From a virus (Duplodnaviria > Caudoviricetes): 64,000 nucleotides of DNA. The notes beneath the pieces are model-generated. The model was not told where the DNA came from. It was given only the letters and a program-made list of their open reading frames with translations, and did not search any database. Position numbers and translations under genes: made by a program. Below, in pieces: positions 28,312 to 44,295 of the stretch. The stretch is taken from the IMG/VR virus record IMGVR_UViG_3300019371_000265, positions 1 through 64,000 of that record, one strand, 5' to 3'. The stretch's first letter is position 1; each line of letters begins with the position of its first letter.

Positions 28312-29505
28312 TTATTCGCTCGCCTTAAAATTGTAAACTGGTTTAATAATATTGACGATATCAACCGTGTCAGATATATTATCTACAATATCACTTAATG
28401 ATTTGTAAGCCATTGGAGATTCATCAATTGTTGACTGATTCACGCATGTAGTAAAAACACCTTCCATTGAGTTCTCAAATTCTTTAACATCAAGAATCTC
28501 TCTTGCCTTATGTCTGCTCATTAATCTTCCAGCTCCATGCGGTGCAGATTGGTTCCAGTCATCATTTCCTTTTCCTATACCGACGATACAACCATCTCTC
28601 ATATTGATAGGAATAAGTAATTTCTCTCCTTTTCTAGCCGAAATAGCTCCTTTACGGACAATGTTGCTTTCGTGGTCAATATAATTATGGATCGTCGTAA
28701 AGATGGATTTAATCTCTATTCCATAGTTTTTAATTATTATGACTCCAATCATCTGGCGATTAGCATCGGCATATTCCTGACATATCTTCATATCATGTAA
28801 ATATTTTTCTCGATACTCACCTTCTAAATAACACAATTCCTTTGGAATATCCAGTTCCTTCGCTTTGAAATCCTTATGCAAATTTTTAATAGCTGCTTGA
28901 ATCTCTTTGCGCCTTCCAGTTCTTTTATATTCCTCGATCAAATTTTCTTGTTCTTCGTATAATTTGTCTTTACCTTGCATTAATTCAATTGCTAAATTCT
29001 GGTAGTAATCTGCAACTTGCTTTCCTAAATTACGGCTCCCAGAATGAATTGTTAAGTATTTGTTATCATCTGGATCAACACCAACTTCAATGAAGTGATT
29101 ACCTCCACCCAGCGTACCAATACTTCTTTCAATTCTTTTTGTATCCTTTAATTCTCTGTAACAATATAAGTCAGATATCTTGTCAAATCTTATCACTCTT
29201 TCATCATGAACACTTCTACCGCTTGGAACATATTTCCTAACAACATCATCTAATTTAGCGAAATCAATCTCAATTTTTCCCAAATCAAAAGTTGTCATTC
29301 CACACCCAATATCTACTCCTACAATATTAGGAATCACTTTATTGCCCAGGTCTGCCGTAAAACCAATCACACAACCTGCACCAGCATGAACGTCTGGCAT
29401 AATTCGCACCTTACAATCCTTAAAAGCAGGTTGATTTATAAGAGTATTTATTTGGCTTAATGCTTCGTCTTCAATTACATTTGTAAATATCTTTAAATCG
29501 CTCAT
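28312..29505 (-). CDS. rtcB: RtcB family RNA ligase
   Basis: MPDVHAG, VGVDIGCG, GTLGGGNHFIE, HSGSR, HNY, SAPHGAGR, DESPMAYK. Confidence 0.95.
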   Translation of the reverse strand: MSDLKIFTNVIEDEALSQINTLINQPAFKDCKVRIMPDVHAGAGCVIGFTADLGNKVIPNIVGVDIGCGMTTFDLGKIEIDFAKLDDVVRKYVPSGRSVHDERVIRFDKISDLYCYRELKDTKRIERSIGTLGGGNHFIEVGVDPDDNKYLTIHSGSRNLGKQVADYYQNLAIELMQGKDKLYEEQENLIEEYKRTGRRKEIQAAIKNLHKDFKAKELDIPKELCYLEGEYREKYLHDMKICQEYADANRQMIGVIIIKNYGIEIKSIFTTIHNYIDHESNIVRKGAISARKGEKLLIPINMRDGCIVGIGKGNDDWNQSAPHGAGRLMSRHKAREILDVKEFENSMEGVFTTCVNQSTIDESPMAYKSLSDIVDNISDTVDIVNIIKPVYNFKASE

Positions 29506-29545: not shown

Positions 29546-32500
29546 TTATTCCAGCTCCTCATCTTCCTGGTCAATATGTAAACTTCCCTCTGCCATCACA
29601 CTTAATCCCCAGATCTCTTCTTTCTGTGCTCCATAAGGAATAATCTGTAATTTGGTTTTCTCGCCTTTACCAGAAATCTTAGTCAGTGTTCCGCTAATTT
29701 TCTCGCCTGTCTCCGCTGCGAATGTAATCTTCATTCCTTCGTCAATTCTCAATACTCCGTTTGCTGTCTCCACCTCTACGCTTTTAAATGGGTTCGTTGT
29801 AGTTAATACCATATGTAATTTCTCCTTTTCATTTTTGATTTATTTTTGTTTTAATAATACTTTCATATCGTTACGCAAGTTACTAGGAATCTGAATTACT
29901 GTGATCAATCTCTCATTCATAAATATAAACGCCTTGTCGCCATATAACCGGATATTGTTTGCGGTTTTATTGGTGAAATATAATCCGTCTACCCATTTCT
30001 TCAGATTCCCTTTTGTTTGACCATGCCGAATTCCGTCGTTGAAGGCCTTGTCGGACATTCTTTGTACTGATTTCTTATTGAGTCCACAGCGTTCAATCAA
30101 ACGTTCCTCAGCATGTTTTGTGACTTCCACCACAGTCCCCACCTACTTTGCATCAGTATCGATTTTGTACTCAAAAGAGTCATTTCTGAATAAATAGCAA
30201 AACAACAACAATATATTGGCTATTGGTATTGCTGAAATCGCCAAAGACTTTATTCCCAAAAGAATATTTGAAGCCAAGTTTCTCTTGCGCTTTTTATAGT
30301 CTTCTAGTTGTTCTTTCGTTAACATAGATTTACATTTGTTTATAGCTACATTCATATTCAGCCAAAATAAAATCCAATTTAAAAATGTAATTCCAAGATA
30401 GATACATAGTATTACTTTCATATTTCACCTCCAACTTTAATCTTCATCGTCATTAAAATACTGGCTTAACGATTCTCCGTACCACTCCCAATTATCAACT
30501 CCGCCATGTTCCAGTGCTTCTAATATTCTGTTTCTGCGTAATAGATCTTCATATTCTTCTTTAGTGATAATCTGATCCGTTCCAGAAACTTTTAAATTAT
30601 TGCCTCCTAAATTGTTTACCAGCTTGGATACGGTCATTTTAATCTTCTGGTTCATTTCCTGCTGAATGCTTGAATATAAATCATCATAGAGCTTTTCGAT
30701 TGTCTTTGACTTAATTTCATTTGCAACATCATTTTCAACATAATCAAGACCTTTCGGTAACTGCTTGTTGAAGAAATCACTATACAATTTTTTATACTCT
30801 CCCTTGGCTTCTTTAAGCAGCTCACCAAACACCTTATCTTTTATCTCTTGTTTAATTTCATTTTTTAAATCATTTTCGTCTTTATATGTAATCCTCACTT
30901 CATTCTTTATCTCGTTTTTCAACTGATATATCACATCATTCTTCGCAGCATCAAAATTTGCCTCAGACAACTCCCTGATTACTCCTTGCTTGATCCCTTC
31001 GAGCACTTCATCAAAATCAAATTCAAACTTTAAATTATTACTCATCAAATTCCTCCTTATTATTTAATTTTACTTTGCTTGCATATTTTACAATATTTTC
31101 AGTCGTGCCTTCATTATCTAAATAAACATCATATGATTCCTTACACCAAGACCCTTCACAGCTCCAATATCCATTTGGTGTGCTACTAAATTTATGTTCT
31201 CCATAATCAGTTCTGGAGCAATAGTCGCATATTGATTCGTCATCACACATTTCTTCAAATGTTTTAAGCAATAAATTCACCTCCTATTTCACCGTCAAAT
31301 GCCAATTTTAATTAATTGTAGATGTATATGGAGTACTGGAACATTCGACCAATTCATATTTAACATCATTTGGTACGATGATTGGCTTATTGTTTTCATA
31401 TTGATATTGTATGTAGTCAGAAAATTCTTCGTATTGCTCTTTAGTAAAAGCTTTATCTGATTTAAAAATTAGAATCTTTTTCATTTACCATCTTCCTCCC
31501 ATCAAAATATTTTTCTTCTTCCCATTGGTATAGCATACCGGACGGTTTAATTATTTGTTCCAATACTCTAATGGATGAGTCAATATCCACCCATGCCTTC
31601 CTCCAACGGTATCCTCTTGCTGTGTCGCTCGCCTTGAGTACAAGCCATTCTTCTCCATCATCAAAATCAATTTCGTTGTAATTTTCACAAATTATTTTTC
31701 TTGTAGATTTAATTCCGATCTTGTTCTTTTCACGTTCAATTTCCAGCAGCTTCTCAACTCCTACTTCTGCGTCGTTTGTATAAATAATACATTTTACAAC
31801 CTGATTACTACATGCTCCTTGCATTTTTCGCTCCCTGTCAATGTCAGATTTTACTTATAATATGTTCCGCAAGATCAGTGGTGGTTTCTTCTGTAAATTC
31901 TTCGAAATCTTCCAGAGTCACGGTTCCATGTGCAAATGCTGATTTATCTCGCGTAAGATTATAGGCATATGTATCTGTGTAAACTCCAAAATAATCATTT
32001 AATTCCGAAACTAGATTGTCTTTGTCTAATGCATTCTCGTAATCCATTAATCTATTTGCGAGTCTAGCAACCAGTCCGATCTCATTTTTATAAACACGAT
32101 AAATTGAATATCCGTAATCGTCCAAGACATCAATAGATCCATCGTCATTTCGTTCTAATATCTTGTTCATCACTGTTCTCCTTTATTTTCATTAATTCTC
32201 AATATAAGCGAATCCTTTTGCTGGAATACTCTAGTCCAACCACCATGGCAATCAGCAAAGTTTCCCTTGAATGCTTCTACTTTTATAAAATCATTTTTAT
32301 ACTTTGATATAATGTCTTCTTCAAATTTCGTCTCAGGAGTTAAAATTAGTTGCATATTACCCTCCTGAGACAACACCGATGTTTTCATACTTTCACCTCA
32401 CATTTTACTTGGCTTACACATATCAATTTCTTCGCTCAATATATATTTTTCGTTCTTGTAGTCAATGATGAATTTATATTCTTTCCAAGTATCCTCATTA

Positions 32501-34289: not shown

Positions 34290-34760
34290 TTACCGTGAAT
34301 TTAATAATTCAATTGCCTTCTTTACGTTCTTTTCTTTTAGCCCATATTTAAACGAAGTCTGTACCAATCTGTCCATATGTGGTTTCATATCATTGTCATC
34401 GTCAATAATTATGAACGACCCAACGTTCTCTCCGTTCCATTTCCTTAACCACGAATCAATTTCTTCTCCTCTGTATCCACCGGATAATATTGGTGTACGA
34501 GACATAAATTTTATTCCAAACTCGTTCATCTTTTCTTCTAATTTTGTGAAATGTTCTGCGTTTAACGACTGGTGATTATAGTCTCTGTCAAACCAACCCA
34601 TTCTCCATGTTGAAGATAAAACGATCTTGGAATCTGTGGCATCTACAATTTCTTTTAATAATTTAATCTTGTTATCGTTTACGAAGTAAATGCTTCCTAT
34701 TTTACTTCTACAACCATTAAAATTTAACACTCCATCTATATCTAAGAATATTACCTTAAT
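34290..34760 (-). CDS. HAD phosphatase, Swiss-Army-knife RNA-repair type (probable ATT start)
   Basis: FLDIDGVLN, IVLSSTWR, RGEEI, IIIDD, GL. Confidence 0.85.
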   Translation of the reverse strand: MKVIFLDIDGVLNFNGCRSKIGSIYFVNDNKIKLLKEIVDATDSKIVLSSTWRMGWFDRDYNHQSLNAEHFTKLEEKMNEFGIKFMSRTPILSGGYRGEEIDSWLRKWNGENVGSFIIIDDDNDMKPHMDRLVQTSFKYGLKEKNVKKAIELLNSR

Positions 34761-35028
34761 GCTTATCCACCTCACTTTTAATCACGGCATAATGCTCTTT
34801 GACATACTATTTTGTTTGGAAATTTTATAAGATTCAAAGTCTTGTTTTCCTGCGCCAACAGGTTAAATCACTACTGCTTCATCGAAAATATCTGCTACTA
34901 AATCCAACGCATCAAACTGCGCTCTATCGTTCTGGTATATGTATTCAGATCCGCATGTTACCGCCGATTCATGTTTCTTGGCGTACGTTTCGATTAGTTT
35001 AATGACCTTTTCTTTATCAATAACCATA

Positions 35029-35196: not shown

Positions 35197-36059
35197 ATAA
35201 ATATACCTCCATATTAATATCTGTGTTCATCTTCATTTACCTCCAACCGAGCATCACCATTGCACAATGCCCATGTGAGAATACTAATTACCTTTCTGAC
35301 TTCATTTTTAGTAAATACTGCGAATAAAGTATTATCATCAAAATCAACATCACTAGTATCTATTGTAGAAAAATCAGCATGATAGTTTGTAATATTATTT
35401 GGAATATCGTTATATCCACAATCTGTCCCGTATTCAATACATGGACACAAGTACGTTACTCCGTTAAAACCAAACTTACCTTCTCTTTCATAGTATCCGG
35501 TTTTAACCATAATGTTATCATCTAACACATTTGGCTCATATACAGTAAATACCGTACCATCTGGTTCTCTGAGGAACTGTTCTTTATTCATAATTCTCAT
35601 ATTTAACCTCTAAATTCACTGTAGAATTTCCCTTTTACTGACTCACTTTAACAATCCAGTTCATCAATACCCATAAATTCACTTGCAAGGAATCCGTCAA
35701 AAGCATCATATACCTTTTCGACGATCTCTTCACAAATTCCATCTTGTTCCATCTGGTCGGCAAAATCATCATCGCAGTTCTTAGAACCAAAATCTGTTTT
35801 TATATGCTTCTTTGTATACGTACTCCCATCTTCCAAGATTATGGTTTCAATACAACCACCTTTCGCTCTTTCAATCGTATATTTCATTATCCTATTTTCC
35901 TTTCTTAAAAAATTTGCGAATCTTCATTTTAATTGATCTGAATAAATAGCCTATGCCGTACACTAAGACCACAATCAAGAATAATCCAAGTGCAATTAAT
36001 CCAACAATATCTTCTAATCTAAGAATTAACATTTCAACCTCCTGTTTTTTATTGACTCG

Positions 36060-36839
36060 CTAGTTTGCTACTAAATCTGTCTGATTTGCATTGATTATCA
36101 TTTCGACAACCTTTAACTGCCCTTTGCCTGTTACGAGTGTTTTAGGCTTCACCATGATTTTATCACCTTGCTCAAAGGTAACTTCAATTACTTTAAACCA
36201 ACCTCGTTCTATGTATGTTTGATATGGTGTGTTGTCAGACATAAGAATTTTCTTATCCTTCAACATCTGGAATAGCCTATTTCTACCAATATCAATATTG
36301 TTTTTCTCATGTAACATTTTCGCCATACTACCCATATCAATAGAGTTGTCAGCTTTAGTTACAGTTGTTGCAAAATTTACAAGTGGCTCATTTTCTTCAA
36401 TTACCTTCTTCAATGGCTCCGTAATAACCTCTTCGAATCTTCTAACTGCCACAGCTCTTTCTATATCACCTTCCGCATTTACGATTGCTAAGATGGCAGC
36501 ATCTTTATTCGTCAACGAGTGTCTGATGGTTTCTTCCATTTTGTTAAACGCCTTGATATATTTAAGTTTCCATTCAAGTGCCTTGCTCCCGGTAAATCCC
36601 ATCACCAACAAGGAGAAGCCATCTCTGTTCATCAAGTATTCTGGATATTCACGCCCTCTGTCTGTTTTGTACGTGGACGAAAAGAGCATATTTTTCACGG
36701 CGGAATTTTCCGCTATGAGATTTCTCACCGTTTCAAGCACATCTTTATGCTGTTTTTCGAACCTTTCAGCAACCTCTCTACTACTCACGACGGGTTCCCC
36801 ATTATATAAAACTAAATTAATATCGCTTATTTTAATCAC
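36060..36839 (-). CDS. Rha-family regulator with KilAC/ANT antirepressor C-domain
   Basis: SSREVAERFEKQHKDVL, MNRDGFSLLVMGFTG; IGRNRLF, TLVTGKGQ. Confidence 0.9.
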   Translation of the reverse strand: MIKISDINLVLYNGEPVVSSREVAERFEKQHKDVLETVRNLIAENSAVKNMLFSSTYKTDRGREYPEYLMNRDGFSLLVMGFTGSKALEWKLKYIKAFNKMEETIRHSLTNKDAAILAIVNAEGDIERAVAVRRFEEVITEPLKKVIEENEPLVNFATTVTKADNSIDMGSMAKMLHEKNNIDIGRNRLFQMLKDKKILMSDNTPYQTYIERGWFKVIEVTFEQGDKIMVKPKTLVTGKGQLKVVEMIINANQTDLVAN

Positions 36840-37111
36840 TCTCCTTTTAATTTTTCTCCGTCAAATCTTGCATTTACTGGTAATTTAAATATAAGCCTAA
36901 TTTCCCAATATCCAATCAAGCCACATACAATAGCAATTACTGGCTGATTTCGTTCCTGTGTAGATCTTATCGCAATCCTCTTTTAATCCACATAGTTCAC
37001 AGGTTGCACAATCGCTCACCATATCCGCTATTTCTTCAGGAGATTTAATATTTTTCATACAATTTACCTCACTTAATTTAAATTCCATCAATCAACAATT
37101 TTACTTATTAT

Positions 37112-37204
37112 TTAATAACAATGTCCTGTGCTCCCACCACCATCACAATGACCTGCCATCTGCCTACTCAGCCTAACTACCATTCTTAAAAAATTAGTAT
37201 ACAT
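37112..37204 (-). CDS. 30-aa peptide MYTNFLRMVVRLSRQMAGHCDGGGSTGHCY, candidate RiPP precursor
   Basis: ATG 1 nt after the radical SAM stop, AAAGGA RBS inside the rSAM 3' end, repeated GHC motif. Confidence 0.65.
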   Translation of the reverse strand: MYTNFLRMVVRLSRQMAGHCDGGGSTGHCY

Positions 37205-37205
37205 T

Positions 37206-38060
37206 TTATACCCATCCTTTCATCAATTCACCATTCTCATAAACTACACCATACTTATTTTTCGGTTTTCTCAGAGCATTACCAATTACTTTAGCCCCAT
37301 CTCCCAAGGAAGCCTGTAATGTTTCCTCACACATAAAGCACGATCTTTTTAATAAAACAGGAGTCTTAAATCCATCTAATATTTCATTCATATTCAGATA
37401 AGTTTGGCAACCACATGAATACGGTGATCCTAACGTTATTCCGAATACCTTTTCAAATGATACAAATACATCTTTTCCATGTTGAATCTCAGATAGCTTA
37501 ATACTATTGAATCCCATTTCATCATAATGTATCAGGCAATTAGAAATGTCGTCTTTTGTATAGAGAAACGGTTTAACAATATTTAAATTTATTCTGATTT
37601 TCTCCTTGTATGGAAGCGATGCGTAAAACTTTTGCCTATCATATTTAGATTTAGTTCTTCTAATTTCATCGGCAACGTCTTCCTGATAGTGCTGCACCGA
37701 CAAATTAATTCCGTCAAGGTGCTCGACCAGCTCCATGAATTTGTCGTATTCGTCGTAGCATATTTTCGGAACCGATGTGGTTACGTAAAGTTTTAGCGAT
37801 GTGTTATCTTTAATTCTCTTAACGCAATCTAATAGTTCATCGAGATATAAACATGGCTCTCCTCCAAGAAACAACACATCATCTAATCCATCTTGATTAT
37901 CAATTATCGTTTGCGCTATTGCATTAACATCTGGCTTCGATATGCTCATTCCTTCATAACATTTATCAATGCAGTGTGCGCAATTATTATCACAGGCACT
38001 TGTAAAATGTACATCAAACGAATTATATATCCCGTCACAGCAATTACATTTAAGTTTCAT
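37206..38060 (-). CDS. Radical SAM protein
   Basis: CDNNCAHC (CX3CX2C), FLGGEP, extra C-terminal Cys (SCGC, SCFMC). Confidence 0.9.
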   Translation of the reverse strand: MKLKCNCCDGIYNSFDVHFTSACDNNCAHCIDKCYEGMSISKPDVNAIAQTIIDNQDGLDDVLFLGGEPCLYLDELLDCVKRIKDNTSLKLYVTTSVPKICYDEYDKFMELVEHLDGINLSVQHYQEDVADEIRRTKSKYDRQKFYASLPYKEKIRINLNIVKPFLYTKDDISNCLIHYDEMGFNSIKLSEIQHGKDVFVSFEKVFGITLGSPYSCGCQTYLNMNEILDGFKTPVLLKRSCFMCEETLQASLGDGAKVIGNALRKPKNKYGVVYENGELMKGWV

Positions 38061-38345
38061 TTTCTCTCCTTCTCCATCAAATTTTGGATTGACTTACTTA
38101 TTTGGACTTTTGGTTTAAAGTCTAAAGAATTCCCGTTTAAACCCGTTTGGATTTTTTGTTCCAAATACTTTTTCTCCATCAACCAGTACCTCATCTACGG
38201 AATAAAACATATCTCCAAATTCCCTTAATGCAACAAGGATTAAATCTTCTACGTCTCCTTTTGTATCATTTGTAGTAAGTGGTATTTTAATAACCATTTC
38301 TTTCATATTATACCTTCTTTCTCAAAGTAATTTCTAATTTGATAA

Positions 38346-38417
38346 ATTTTATTTCAATCTATATTTATATATTACTCCTCTTAAATAGCAATGTCAAGCA
38401 TTTTATTTCAATCTATT
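38346..38417 (-). promoter_or_regulatory. sigmaA promoter flanked by two copies of repeat B
   Basis: TTGACA (38397-38392)-17-TAATAT (38374-38369); repeats at 38400-38417 and 38346-38363. Confidence 0.75.
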
Positions 38418-39011
38418 AAGCAACTCATCTAAGCGACTCTGACTGGCGGATATAGATGCATGCAGCGACTCAATCTCTTTCAATCTCTCACGTTCTTCCT
38501 TCTCTTTTAAGAGTTCTTCGTTGACTCTATAGAAGTCATCTTCATAATCCCAGTATGAATGTTCGTCTCCTTGCCACCTATAATCCATCAATAAGCATGT
38601 CTTACTTAGCCTGAGAGCTGGAGCTTGCCAATCGCAATCATGACCACAGCAGTCTTTGTCTTCTCTGTAATCTTCGTCTCCTAGTTTACACCAACAATAG
38701 CCGTCACCAGGTCTTAAATCAATAAAAATTTCAAACTCATATGTACAATTTGATAAACTAACCAAAATTTTTCCAAGTGATAGATAATCTTTTTCGTCAT
38801 TTACAATATACCTAATGTCATAAAATTCAGACCCGCATAAATCGCTTAAGAATTCACTATCTGGATTTTTTTCCAATGATTGTTGTAGTGTTGCCAATAT
38901 AAAAGGAATATCTATTTCATCATCGTGTTTATCGTGTTCATAAGTTAATTCTTTTATAACCTTGTTAATAAAATTGCTTACATTATTTTCCACAATTAAT
39001 TCCCCTTCTCA

Positions 39012-39029
39012 GTCAAATTTTCGATTGAC
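39012..39029. repeat. Junction palindrome (repeat A), perfect-arm example
   Basis: aGTCAA attttcga TTGACt. Confidence 0.85.
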
Positions 39030-39044
39030 TTACTTATTCAAATT

Positions 39045-39326
39045 TCAATCTTGTTTATTACATTTAAAATGCTCACTGTCCAAAATAGTATCTAATAATT
39101 CTTCAAAAAAACTCATCTCCATCACCTCGATAATATTCGAAATCACAATTATGATTACTACATTTTAGGCTAGTAGACGTATCAATGACTCCCCAATGTC
39201 TTATTTTAACTTTTTTTGTGGTATTCCAGTTTCTGGGTTTATATACTGTTCTTTGTCAAACCCATGTTCTTGCGTTACCAGTAATTTTTCTTTACATACA
39301 GGACAATTATAATTTCTTTCGCCCAT
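39045..39326 (-). pseudogene. Frameshifted zinc-ribbon gene
   Basis: MGERNYNCPVC..PQK/KVKIRHW..CSNHNC; A7 run at 39211-39217 would need to be A8. Confidence 0.55.
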
Positions 39327-43084: not shown

Positions 43085-44295
43085 TTATATGTTTTTATTT
43101 TTAATTCACCGTCAAACCAGACTTCGACAGTGTCATTTCAACCAATCTTTTCAACTGTTACTTTGAATTGTTCTCCAAGTTCAACTTTTCTGCCTAAAAT
43201 TTCACATATCATTCCTTCTGCGTAATATGATGATTCTCCATCACTCAAGTAAAATATTTTTTCATAACAATCATAATCATAATCTGAAGATCTTTTCCAA
43301 CATAACTTGCCTTCAACTGTTTTCTTTTCCATTAATTTCACCTCCTGCAAAATCAGCAATCGACTGTTTTATTTTCTGAAATCTTTGTTTTCTTCACAAA
43401 CAAACCTAACTGTTCCGCATATTGGACATATCTTAAATTTCTTGTGCACCGCAGAATTGTACCACTCTTTTTCTTCTCCCATATGTCCACACGCAGCGCA
43501 TTGAATTTTTTGTTTTGGTGGATTAAATACTGATATAATATCGTCGCCCATTTTCATTCTCCTTTCACGGTAAAATCCGAGATTGACTTACAAATTTAAC
43601 CCACAACTCTTTCTCCGCACTTGTTTAAACCATAATCCACATATGCCTGTTTTAACTTTGGGATCAGCTCCTTGCTTGATTTTGAAAAATGAGACTCATT
43701 GCACCATCTGATTCCTGAAATCTTATTGTCTTTGACGCTTATGATACAGGAGAAGATTCCAGCTTCGAAATCATCATCACTGAAATAATAAACATCTTTC
43801 GAAATGTTGATCATTGCATTTATCCTGCGTTCAATAATTTCTCGTTTAAACTTCATTCTCTTGCATCTCTTAGATGATTCTCTATATTGTTGCTCTGCTT
43901 CATCTGATAAGGTATAGTATTTCATTACGTTATTCCCCCTCATTACAAATTAATTTATTTACCAATGTTAAGACAATACAGAATAAAATAAATAGAGAAA
44001 ATCCCAATAAACTAAAAACTGAAACCCCAAAATTGTCACACACAAGATTAATAAATACGCCAGACAATATACACACCATGTCTCTGCTAAGCTCAATAAG
44101 CTCAATCTTCCTCTTGCGAAAAACTATTTTGTACAATACTGCCGCTGTTAAAAAACAAAATACTGCATTAATTCCATTCATACCTATTACCTATCCCTTC
44201 TCCATCAAATACGAATTTTACATCATCTGTTAACGTGCTACATCTTTCGCATTATCTCTCCTTTTAGTTTGCAACATTTTATTTCAAATTATCAG

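Follow-up and report, generated by a model that had tools for sequence, protein, structure and literature searches.

Peptide maturation by radical S-adenosylmethionine (SAM) enzymes is known from bacteria and, to our knowledge, has almost always been found via two kinds of domain, i.e., the recognition element (RRE) of RiPPs, peptides that are ribosomally synthesised and become modified post-translationally, and the SPASM domain. The present study concerns a radical SAM enzyme gene and the gene of a 30-residue peptide directly after it, which lie in a 64,000-nucleotide stretch of viral DNA (Caudoviricetes; positions 1 to 64,000 of IMG/VR record IMGVR_UViG_3300019371_000265), hereafter the window. 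The record is a provirus of 126 kb, approximately 86% complete, and represents a large temperate phage.

Among the closest described systems are those of the SCIFF/ranthipeptide type, which often consist of a bare two-gene unit without a protease or exporter, are common in Clostridia and have an unclear role (PMC8326336). In SkfB, the twitch auxiliary cluster is proposed to bind the substrate cysteine, and a thioether is formed on an adjacent short precursor; in both CteB and SkfB the open site of the auxiliary cluster faces the substrate, and a cysteine of CteA could contact the free iron (PMC8326336). In the HXS antiphage system, the protein HxsA, with His-containing repeats, is matured by the radical SAM proteins HxsB/HxsC (PMC13128918).

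While radical SAM peptide maturation as such is already known, the locus described here is new in the minimal architecture of its enzyme, in the motif of its peptide and in its mainly viral distribution. We consider it probable that the two genes form a leader-guided enzyme-substrate pair in which the cysteine motifs of the peptide are modified, most likely by thioether cross-links.

Results

The enzyme and the peptide are conserved together

The enzyme has 956 relatives in a set of 5.8 billion proteins, the nearest of them 75-83% identical and lying on contigs of up to 321 kb. An index-free search, i.e., one that uses no word index, gave 66 clusters of relatives at E < 1e-30, and the neighbours of the enzyme in the ESM Atlas are almost all viral. 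Related loci were taken from IMG/VR (16), from GTDB genomes (12; the profile search of the genome contigs was built from 11 closer sequences) and from metagenomes (80), plus single look-ups of distant representatives, and the DNA downstream of the enzyme gene was read by script in 109 related loci at 39-83% enzyme identity. An open reading frame (ORF) with two to five His-Cys motifs follows the enzyme gene in 96 of the 109, and in seven more an ORF of the same type carries variant motifs (Gly-Cys-His repeats, Cys-Cys or Cys-rich runs). One locus is a frameshift fusion of enzyme and peptide, and in the other five the sequence stops before the peptide site. Four loci had been dropped by a stricter first filter, and all of them proved to contain the peptide on re-reading.

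The pairing is also present in GC-rich DNA, e.g., at L009 and L015. A first-pass annotation of the window had named homologs without a conserved downstream peptide as the observation that would speak against a functional pair; some 100 independent loci, spanning AT-rich and GC-rich DNA, proved to have the conserved peptide beside the enzyme. This conservation, together with synonymous codon variation at invariant residues, rules out a chance ORF: Thr3, Gly18, His19 and Cys20 of the peptide are invariant over 17 loci, each being encoded by two or three synonymous codons, and the ratio of non-synonymous to synonymous polymorphism (pN/pS) of the leader is 0.45. Judged by these sequence comparisons, the small ORF is a real gene.

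At 39-45% enzyme identity the leader motif is kept and the cysteine part is altered. In the Lak megaphages, which have genomes of 540-550 kb and an enzyme of 35% identity, the downstream ORF is 170 aa long, starts like the partner at L050 and ends with two Gly-Gly-Cys. The idea that Lak phages have no partner had arisen from the first scans for Gly-His-Cys and from a genome-wide pattern scan that stayed at control level, and was overturned by this 170-aa ORF.

The peptide has a constant leader and a variable, cysteine-bearing core

The first-pass annotation had described an ORF of 30 aa, one nucleotide past the enzyme stop, with an amphipathic leader-like half and a Gly-rich core holding Gly-His-Cys twice, and this description was exact on re-reading. 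In the window peptide, residues 1-17 make up a basic amphipathic leader, the two Gly-His-Cys motifs stand at 18-20 and 27-29 with a Gly/Ser-rich spacer, and one final residue follows. Across 87 distinct peptides from related loci the start is conserved and usually reads Met, an aromatic residue (Tyr/Phe), Thr, Lys/Arg, a hydrophobic residue, Leu and Arg/Lys, while the first cysteine is most often residue 20. Two motifs are found in 76 peptides, three in three, four in seven and five in one, with Gly preceding His-Cys in 176 of 194 motifs and the last cysteine being the penultimate residue in 78 peptides. The spacers are hypervariable (3-17 residues, 43% Gly, 15% Ser). Two tandem peptides with different cores are present at L014 and L113, and in the peptides of L035 and L036 the core is duplicated internally. 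A few peptides carry tails of 14-30 residues beyond the last cysteine, which weakens the idea of a C-terminal cofactor of the mycofactocin-like kind.

The peptide family had no match in NCBIfam, Pfam, PHROGs or PADLOC, and when the window peptide and four variants were compared with NCBIfam, which holds the SCIFF precursor model (TIGR03973-type), no match appeared up to E = 10. The exact window peptide is present in public gene calls without a name, and one relative is annotated just as 'hypothetical protein'.

Repeated His-Cys pairs with Gly/Ser linkers resemble metal-binding motifs, and some clades replace or shift the histidine and keep the cysteine. The peptide might on these grounds stay unmodified and be a small protein that binds metal (Zn, Ni, Cu or Fe) and is co-transcribed, e.g., to load or protect the clusters of the enzyme. 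However, a free peptide needs neither a strictly conserved leader, set mostly at one distance before the first cysteine, nor strict adjacency to one enzyme family, and we regard this explanation as extremely unlikely.

The enzyme is a small radical SAM protein with three extra invariant cysteines

The enzyme is a member of the radical SAM superfamily (Pfam PF04055 Radical_SAM, 42.2 bits against a cut-off of 29.5, 1.3e-10; Fer4_12, 1.1e-8). Its cluster motif CX3CX2C is formed by C23/C27/C30 and its SAM-binding GGEP occupies residues 66-69, with further cysteines in Cys-Asn-Cys-Cys (5-8), Cys-Gly-Cys (216-218) and Cys-Phe-Met-Cys (241-244), all cysteine motifs being placed as the first-pass annotation had read them. 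In an alignment of 64 diverse members, the CX3CX2C cysteines, GGEP, C8, C218 and C241 are invariant, and the last three are kept in every locus, including those of the Lak megaphages. The other extra cysteines are less constant: C7 and C244 do not go beyond the clade that has Gly-His-Cys peptides, and C5 and C216 are variable. The earlier suggestion that the extra cysteines could bind an auxiliary cluster is thereby supported, though narrowed to the three that are family-invariant.

The AlphaFold2 (AF2) model of the enzyme is of high quality (predicted local distance difference test (pLDDT) 95, predicted template modelling score (pTM) 0.91). In this model C218 and C241 flank a beta-hairpin (strands 219-222 and 235-238), and a cysteine pair around a beta-hairpin is the typical arrangement at twitch-type auxiliary cluster sites; a single twitch-like auxiliary site is thus possible on the modelled fold. 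The first barrel strand starts at residue 14, which leaves no room for an RRE, and neither the Pfam scan nor the AF2 model has such an N-terminal domain. SPASM had no Pfam match; the C-terminal 90 residues hold only two invariant cysteines (C218 and C241), and the NCBIfam models of SPASM maturases match the core only, far below their cut-offs.

At the level of curated families, every match of the enzyme covers the core region only and lies far below the cut-off. This holds for viperin_w_prok in NCBIfam (37.3 bits against a cut-off of 180), the TIGR04278 viperin model (24.1 against 450), TIGR04100 'rSAM_pair_X' (35.4 against 262), NrdG2 (25.5 against 131), the YjjW activase (27.7 against 250), MoaA (23 against 231), HxsC (20.5 against 267.9) and HxsC4 (28.6 against 500), while the PADLOC pVip profile gave 41 bits, likewise in the core only. 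Membership of the viperin/pVip, TIGR04100 or HxsC families was rejected because the curated cut-offs are not reached. In public records the enzyme goes under 'radical SAM protein' or 'organic radical activating enzyme'. A role as a glycyl-radical enzyme activase (PFL-AE, NrdG), the name given in some sources, was also rejected, as the scores are below cut-off and the adjoining gene encodes a 30-aa peptide instead of a glycyl-radical enzyme.

Gene layout and the repeat-A element

The positions of the two genes and of the features around them are given in Table 1. In most relatives the distance from the enzyme stop to the peptide start is -1 to +4 nt. The purine-rich AAAGGA, within the final enzyme codons and 10 nt upstream of the peptide ATG, could on its sequence be a candidate ribosome-binding site for the peptide. 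Prediction over 36000-39200 gave no terminator-like site, and no promoter signal above chance stands between the enzyme and peptide genes.

Table 1. Positions of the gene pair, its junction, repeat-A sites and neighbouring genes in the window
Feature	Coordinates	Strand	Description or evidence
Radical SAM enzyme gene	38060-37206	minus	284 aa; Pfam Radical_SAM and Fer4_12
Partner peptide gene (candidate precursor)	37204-37112	minus	30 aa; sequence reading and conservation in related loci
Coupling junction	37205-37220	minus	Shine-Dalgarno-like purine stretch, enzyme TAA, single spacer base ahead of peptide ATG
AAAGGA stretch	37220-37215		Within final enzyme codons
Enzyme stop codon TAA	37208-37206
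Spacer base	37205
Peptide start codon ATG	37204-37202
Repeat-A element	38067-38105	minus	Overlaps radical SAM ribosome-binding site; exact 26-nt twin elsewhere
Exact 26-nt copies of repeat-A	38077-38102; 39013-39038		Two in the window
Degenerate repeat-A-like site	37084-37107	minus	Directly after peptide stop, upstream of next small ORF; loose-pattern match
Repeat-A core, examples	38070-38082; 39006-39018; 36854-36866; 44198-44210	minus	Just upstream of start codons
Small Cys-rich ORF	36897-37091 (start more likely ATG near 37047)	minus	8 Cys; directly after peptide
'Swiss Army Knife' RNA-repair HAD	34290-34775	minus	7.7e-25
T7 gp5.9-like RecBCD inhibitor (C-terminal domain)	30437-31048	minus	5.4e-15
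RtcB RNA ligase	28312-29505	minus	2.8e-57

The first-pass annotation had further held that the pair is bracketed exactly by sites of a repeat, repeat-A, and so forms one unit. A 26-nt form of this element is present exactly twice in the window, where none is expected, and a looser pattern (TAAGTAA, a gap, TTGAYNGA) has five matches in the window against 0.07 expected, one of which is the degenerate site in Table 1. The core, ATTTGAYNGAGAA, occurs 17 times against 2.5 expected, on the minus strand only, throughout the gene arm and just upstream of many early-arm start codons. Sites do stand upstream of the enzyme and, in degenerate form, after the peptide, but the core precedes many other genes and does not delimit the pair. 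It is a general gene-start motif of the arm, close to ribosome-binding sites, and not a boundary specific to the pair; because it marks many gene starts, the argument from bracketing is weak. Repeat-A could be a translational operator or an RNA-processing site common to the arm. The duplicated 26-nt form also includes a short inverted repeat.

Neighbouring genes and genomic setting

The pair sits in a long run of small minus-strand genes, including two antirepressors (Rha/ANT and Bro-N/ANT). The genes for RtcB, the RecBCD-inhibitor domain and the HAD protein lie downstream of it on the same strand, i.e., at lower window coordinates, and the arm around the pair looks like an early, accessory island of counter-defence-like and RNA-repair genes. 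The position of the pair in this arm, beside RNA-repair and RecBCD-inhibitor genes, suggests a role in phage-host conflict. The ORF with eight cysteines that comes next after the peptide is without a family match and is not conserved beside the pair in other loci; unrelated small Cys-rich ORFs come after the pair at L007, L013 and L016.

Flanking genes differ from locus to locus, and the pair therefore moves as a two-gene unit. It was also found on three contigs of uncultured-Clostridia metagenome-assembled genomes (MAGs) in GTDB (L034, L036 and L037; 50-52% enzyme identity), each with a partner peptide and surrounded by ordinary bacterial genes, i.e., MscS, a pyridine nucleotide-disulfide (thioredoxin-reductase-like) oxidoreductase, polysaccharide deacetylase, Tex, ABC-F and PGA_cap (capsule synthesis). 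The pair thus also exists outside phage DNA, although some caution is needed because the bacterial copies come from MAG bins. Near the distant relatives L024, L049 and L050 (38-42% identity) there are genes for NUDIX hydrolases, an NrtR-type winged helix and isochorismatase/nicotinamidase-like and PARG-like proteins, an NAD/ADP-ribose theme which may be coincidental.

Sublancin benefits the SPbeta lysogen. The pair could in the same way make an exported antimicrobial, i.e., a bacteriocin of the sactipeptide or ranthipeptide type that benefits the lysogen. The element that carries it is a large temperate phage, lysis could free the product without a transporter, and Cys-rich radical SAM peptides are often bacteriocins (PMC8326336). 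Yet no protease, exporter or immunity gene was found beside the pair, either in the window or in any annotated flank, as the first-pass annotation had already remarked of transporter and protease, and on the same grounds an antimicrobial function has been deemed unlikely for the similar two-gene SCIFF system (PMC8326336). The same pair occurs, moreover, in strictly giant phages such as Lak, and alone among housekeeping genes in the Clostridia MAGs, so that a bacteriocin appears very unlikely. The missing protease and exporter, the lone pair in bacterial chromosomes and the presence in very large Lak phages favour an intracellular role, which is probable on this context.

Fusions, unusual loci and the possibility of an accessory subunit

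P0125 is a singleton natural fusion of 346 aa, in which a Cys/His tail follows a long helix. Its leader motif is gone, which would be expected of a leader that has docking as its sole function; a search for relatives of its fused tail found only P0125 itself. A 318-aa fusion of enzyme and peptide (L005 in IMG/VR; P0278) results from a one-base difference in an A-run near the 3' end of the enzyme gene and is present on four contigs from three sources; it could be a genuine variant or a homopolymer sequencing error. A search for long enzyme fusions found none, which is weak evidence. In P0170 (L132:67-2154:+; 695 aa) an RlmN/Cfr-like radical SAM domain (7.3e-20, below cut-off) is fused to a member of the enzyme family, and downstream there is still a partner peptide, rich in cysteine, whose leader shows the usual motif. 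At L004 a second, larger radical SAM gene (L004:4002-5246:+; 414 aa) with MoaA/PapB/SPASM-type matches, below cut-off, stands directly after the peptide; this gene, of a kind not seen in the other loci, may encode an additional tailoring enzyme.

These forms bear on whether the small protein is a substrate at all. The main alternative is an accessory subunit whose flexible Cys/His tail would serve the enzyme as a ligand for a cluster, relay sulfur or electrons to it or bring it a metal, the real substrate being something else, e.g., a nucleotide, RNA or DNA. In keeping with this, the nearest sequence matches of the enzyme, viperin-like enzymes and MoaA, have nucleotides as their substrates, one relative (P0170) is joined to a domain of the RNA methyltransferase kind, and RNA-repair and nucleic-acid genes lie in the neighbourhood in the window. 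Partners of 20-170 aa, plus fused forms (P0125; L005/P0278), are common for subunits, and the Lak and fused forms consist of a long helical linker and a floppy cysteine tail, like a swinging arm. However, tandem peptides with different cores, two to five motifs and hypervariable spacers suit substrates better than a stoichiometric subunit, the viperin and MoaA scores reflect the generic core only, and the fusions are rare, one being a singleton and one a homopolymer frameshift. An accessory subunit is, on this evidence, unlikely.

Discussion

The enzyme-substrate reading of the pair is favoured because several of its features are hallmarks of RiPP precursors: the leader is conserved and its distance to the first motif mostly constant, the spacers are hypervariable, motifs are repeated, peptides are sometimes duplicated, and the adjacency to one enzyme family is strict. 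The restriction of C7 and C244 to the clade with Gly-His-Cys peptides was counted as further support.

From these features we infer how the pair might work. The conserved N-terminal helix of the peptide would dock as a leader on the radical SAM enzyme and would thereby bring the first Gly-His-Cys, with its cysteine usually at residue 20, to the active site. A probable second iron-sulfur cluster, suggested by the invariance of the three extra cysteines, would be held by C8, C218 and C241 with one iron open. The substrate cysteine would bind this open iron while the 5'-deoxyadenosyl radical takes a hydrogen from some residue close by, and this would probably result in a cysteine-based cross-link, most likely a thioether, at each motif. 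The product would then keep its leader or be trimmed by host enzymes. It would most likely act within the infected or lysogenic cell, e.g., as a metal- or redox-active peptide or as an inhibitor, whereas a function as an exported bacteriocin is improbable.

Several observations weigh against this reading. No adjacent partner was seen at L023 and L024, two short contigs at 38-42% identity. Within the peptides, the spacers show no conserved residue that could be the acceptor, and the implied rings would differ widely in size, a pattern unusual among the cross-links that radical SAM enzymes are known to make. When P0125 was folded as a stand-in for the complex, its cysteine tail was disordered (pLDDT 42-52) and gave no information on docking. 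The best sequence matches of the enzyme in the PDB are viperins (1e-18), which act on nucleotides, and its fold neighbours SuiB, GDGT-MAS, MoaA, viperin and CteB are tied at Z ~17, so maturases are not favoured. The modelled fold places the enzyme in the MoaA/viperin/SPASM neighbourhood and does not decide the substrate, since peptide maturases and nucleotide enzymes score alike.

Full-text literature searches on radical SAM or RiPP systems of phages turned up no account of a phage radical SAM enzyme paired with a Gly-His-Cys peptide, and standard genome mining would miss this enzyme family because RRE and SPASM are absent. If the two genes do form an enzyme-substrate system, they represent a new minimal maturase architecture and probably new Cys/His chemistry, which hundreds of phage lineages from gut, rumen, sludge and sediment samples would carry. 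A more far-reaching proposal, which we hold as tentative and rather doubtful, is that a large, almost purely viral family of minimal maturases lacking RRE and SPASM installs a novel Cys/His-centred modification on a leader-guided peptide, with a product that is intracellular, e.g., a metal- or redox-active cofactor or an inhibitor used in host takeover or counter-defence. If true, this would be the first RiPP-like pathway to be widespread among phages as a general trait, in genomes of 50 kb as well as in the Lak megaphages. The whole system consists of two small genes and is therefore directly testable.

As in the systems of SPASM/twitch RiPP maturases, the enzyme adjoins a short candidate precursor whose leader is conserved and whose core bears cysteines, and one peptide maturase, SuiB, is among its structural neighbours (Z ~17). 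The likeness is close to the SCIFF/ranthipeptide systems (CteB-CteA, Tte1186 and PapB-PapA), in which a radical SAM enzyme adjoins a short peptide that likewise has a conserved leader and is rich in cysteine towards the C-terminus, and CteB is a structural neighbour of the enzyme (Z 16.7). Unlike in SCIFF, the enzyme is approximately 150 residues shorter and lacks both an N-terminal RRE and the seven-Cys motif of SPASM, the peptide motif is Gly-His-Cys and not a cysteine with an Asp/Asn/Thr acceptor, the peptide has no NCBIfam or Pfam match, and the enzyme family is overwhelmingly viral. SkfB-SkfA is similar in its single auxiliary site, which here is putative, with three cysteines around a beta-hairpin, and in its structure (SkfB, Z 15.0); however, SkfB has an RRE and a different cysteine pattern, whereas the putative ligand C8 is N-terminal here, and at the sequence level there is no family match (6efn, 7.9e-6, core only).

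For its radical SAM core, the enzyme is matched best, by sequence and by profile, by viperin/pVip and MoaA, which are also similar to it in size and fold (Z ~17), and MoaA also carries a three-Cys C-terminal auxiliary cluster. Their match to the enzyme spans residues 16-190 only, with scores far below cut-offs, and viperins have neither auxiliary cysteines nor a partner peptide. The HXS system, finally, shares radical SAM maturation and a setting of phage-bacterium conflict, with weak HxsC and HxsC4 profile matches to the enzyme; but HXS is a bacterial defence system of four genes, its effector is periplasmic and its repeats are His-Xaa-Ser, whereas the system described here consists of two phage-carried genes and is built on Gly-His-Cys.

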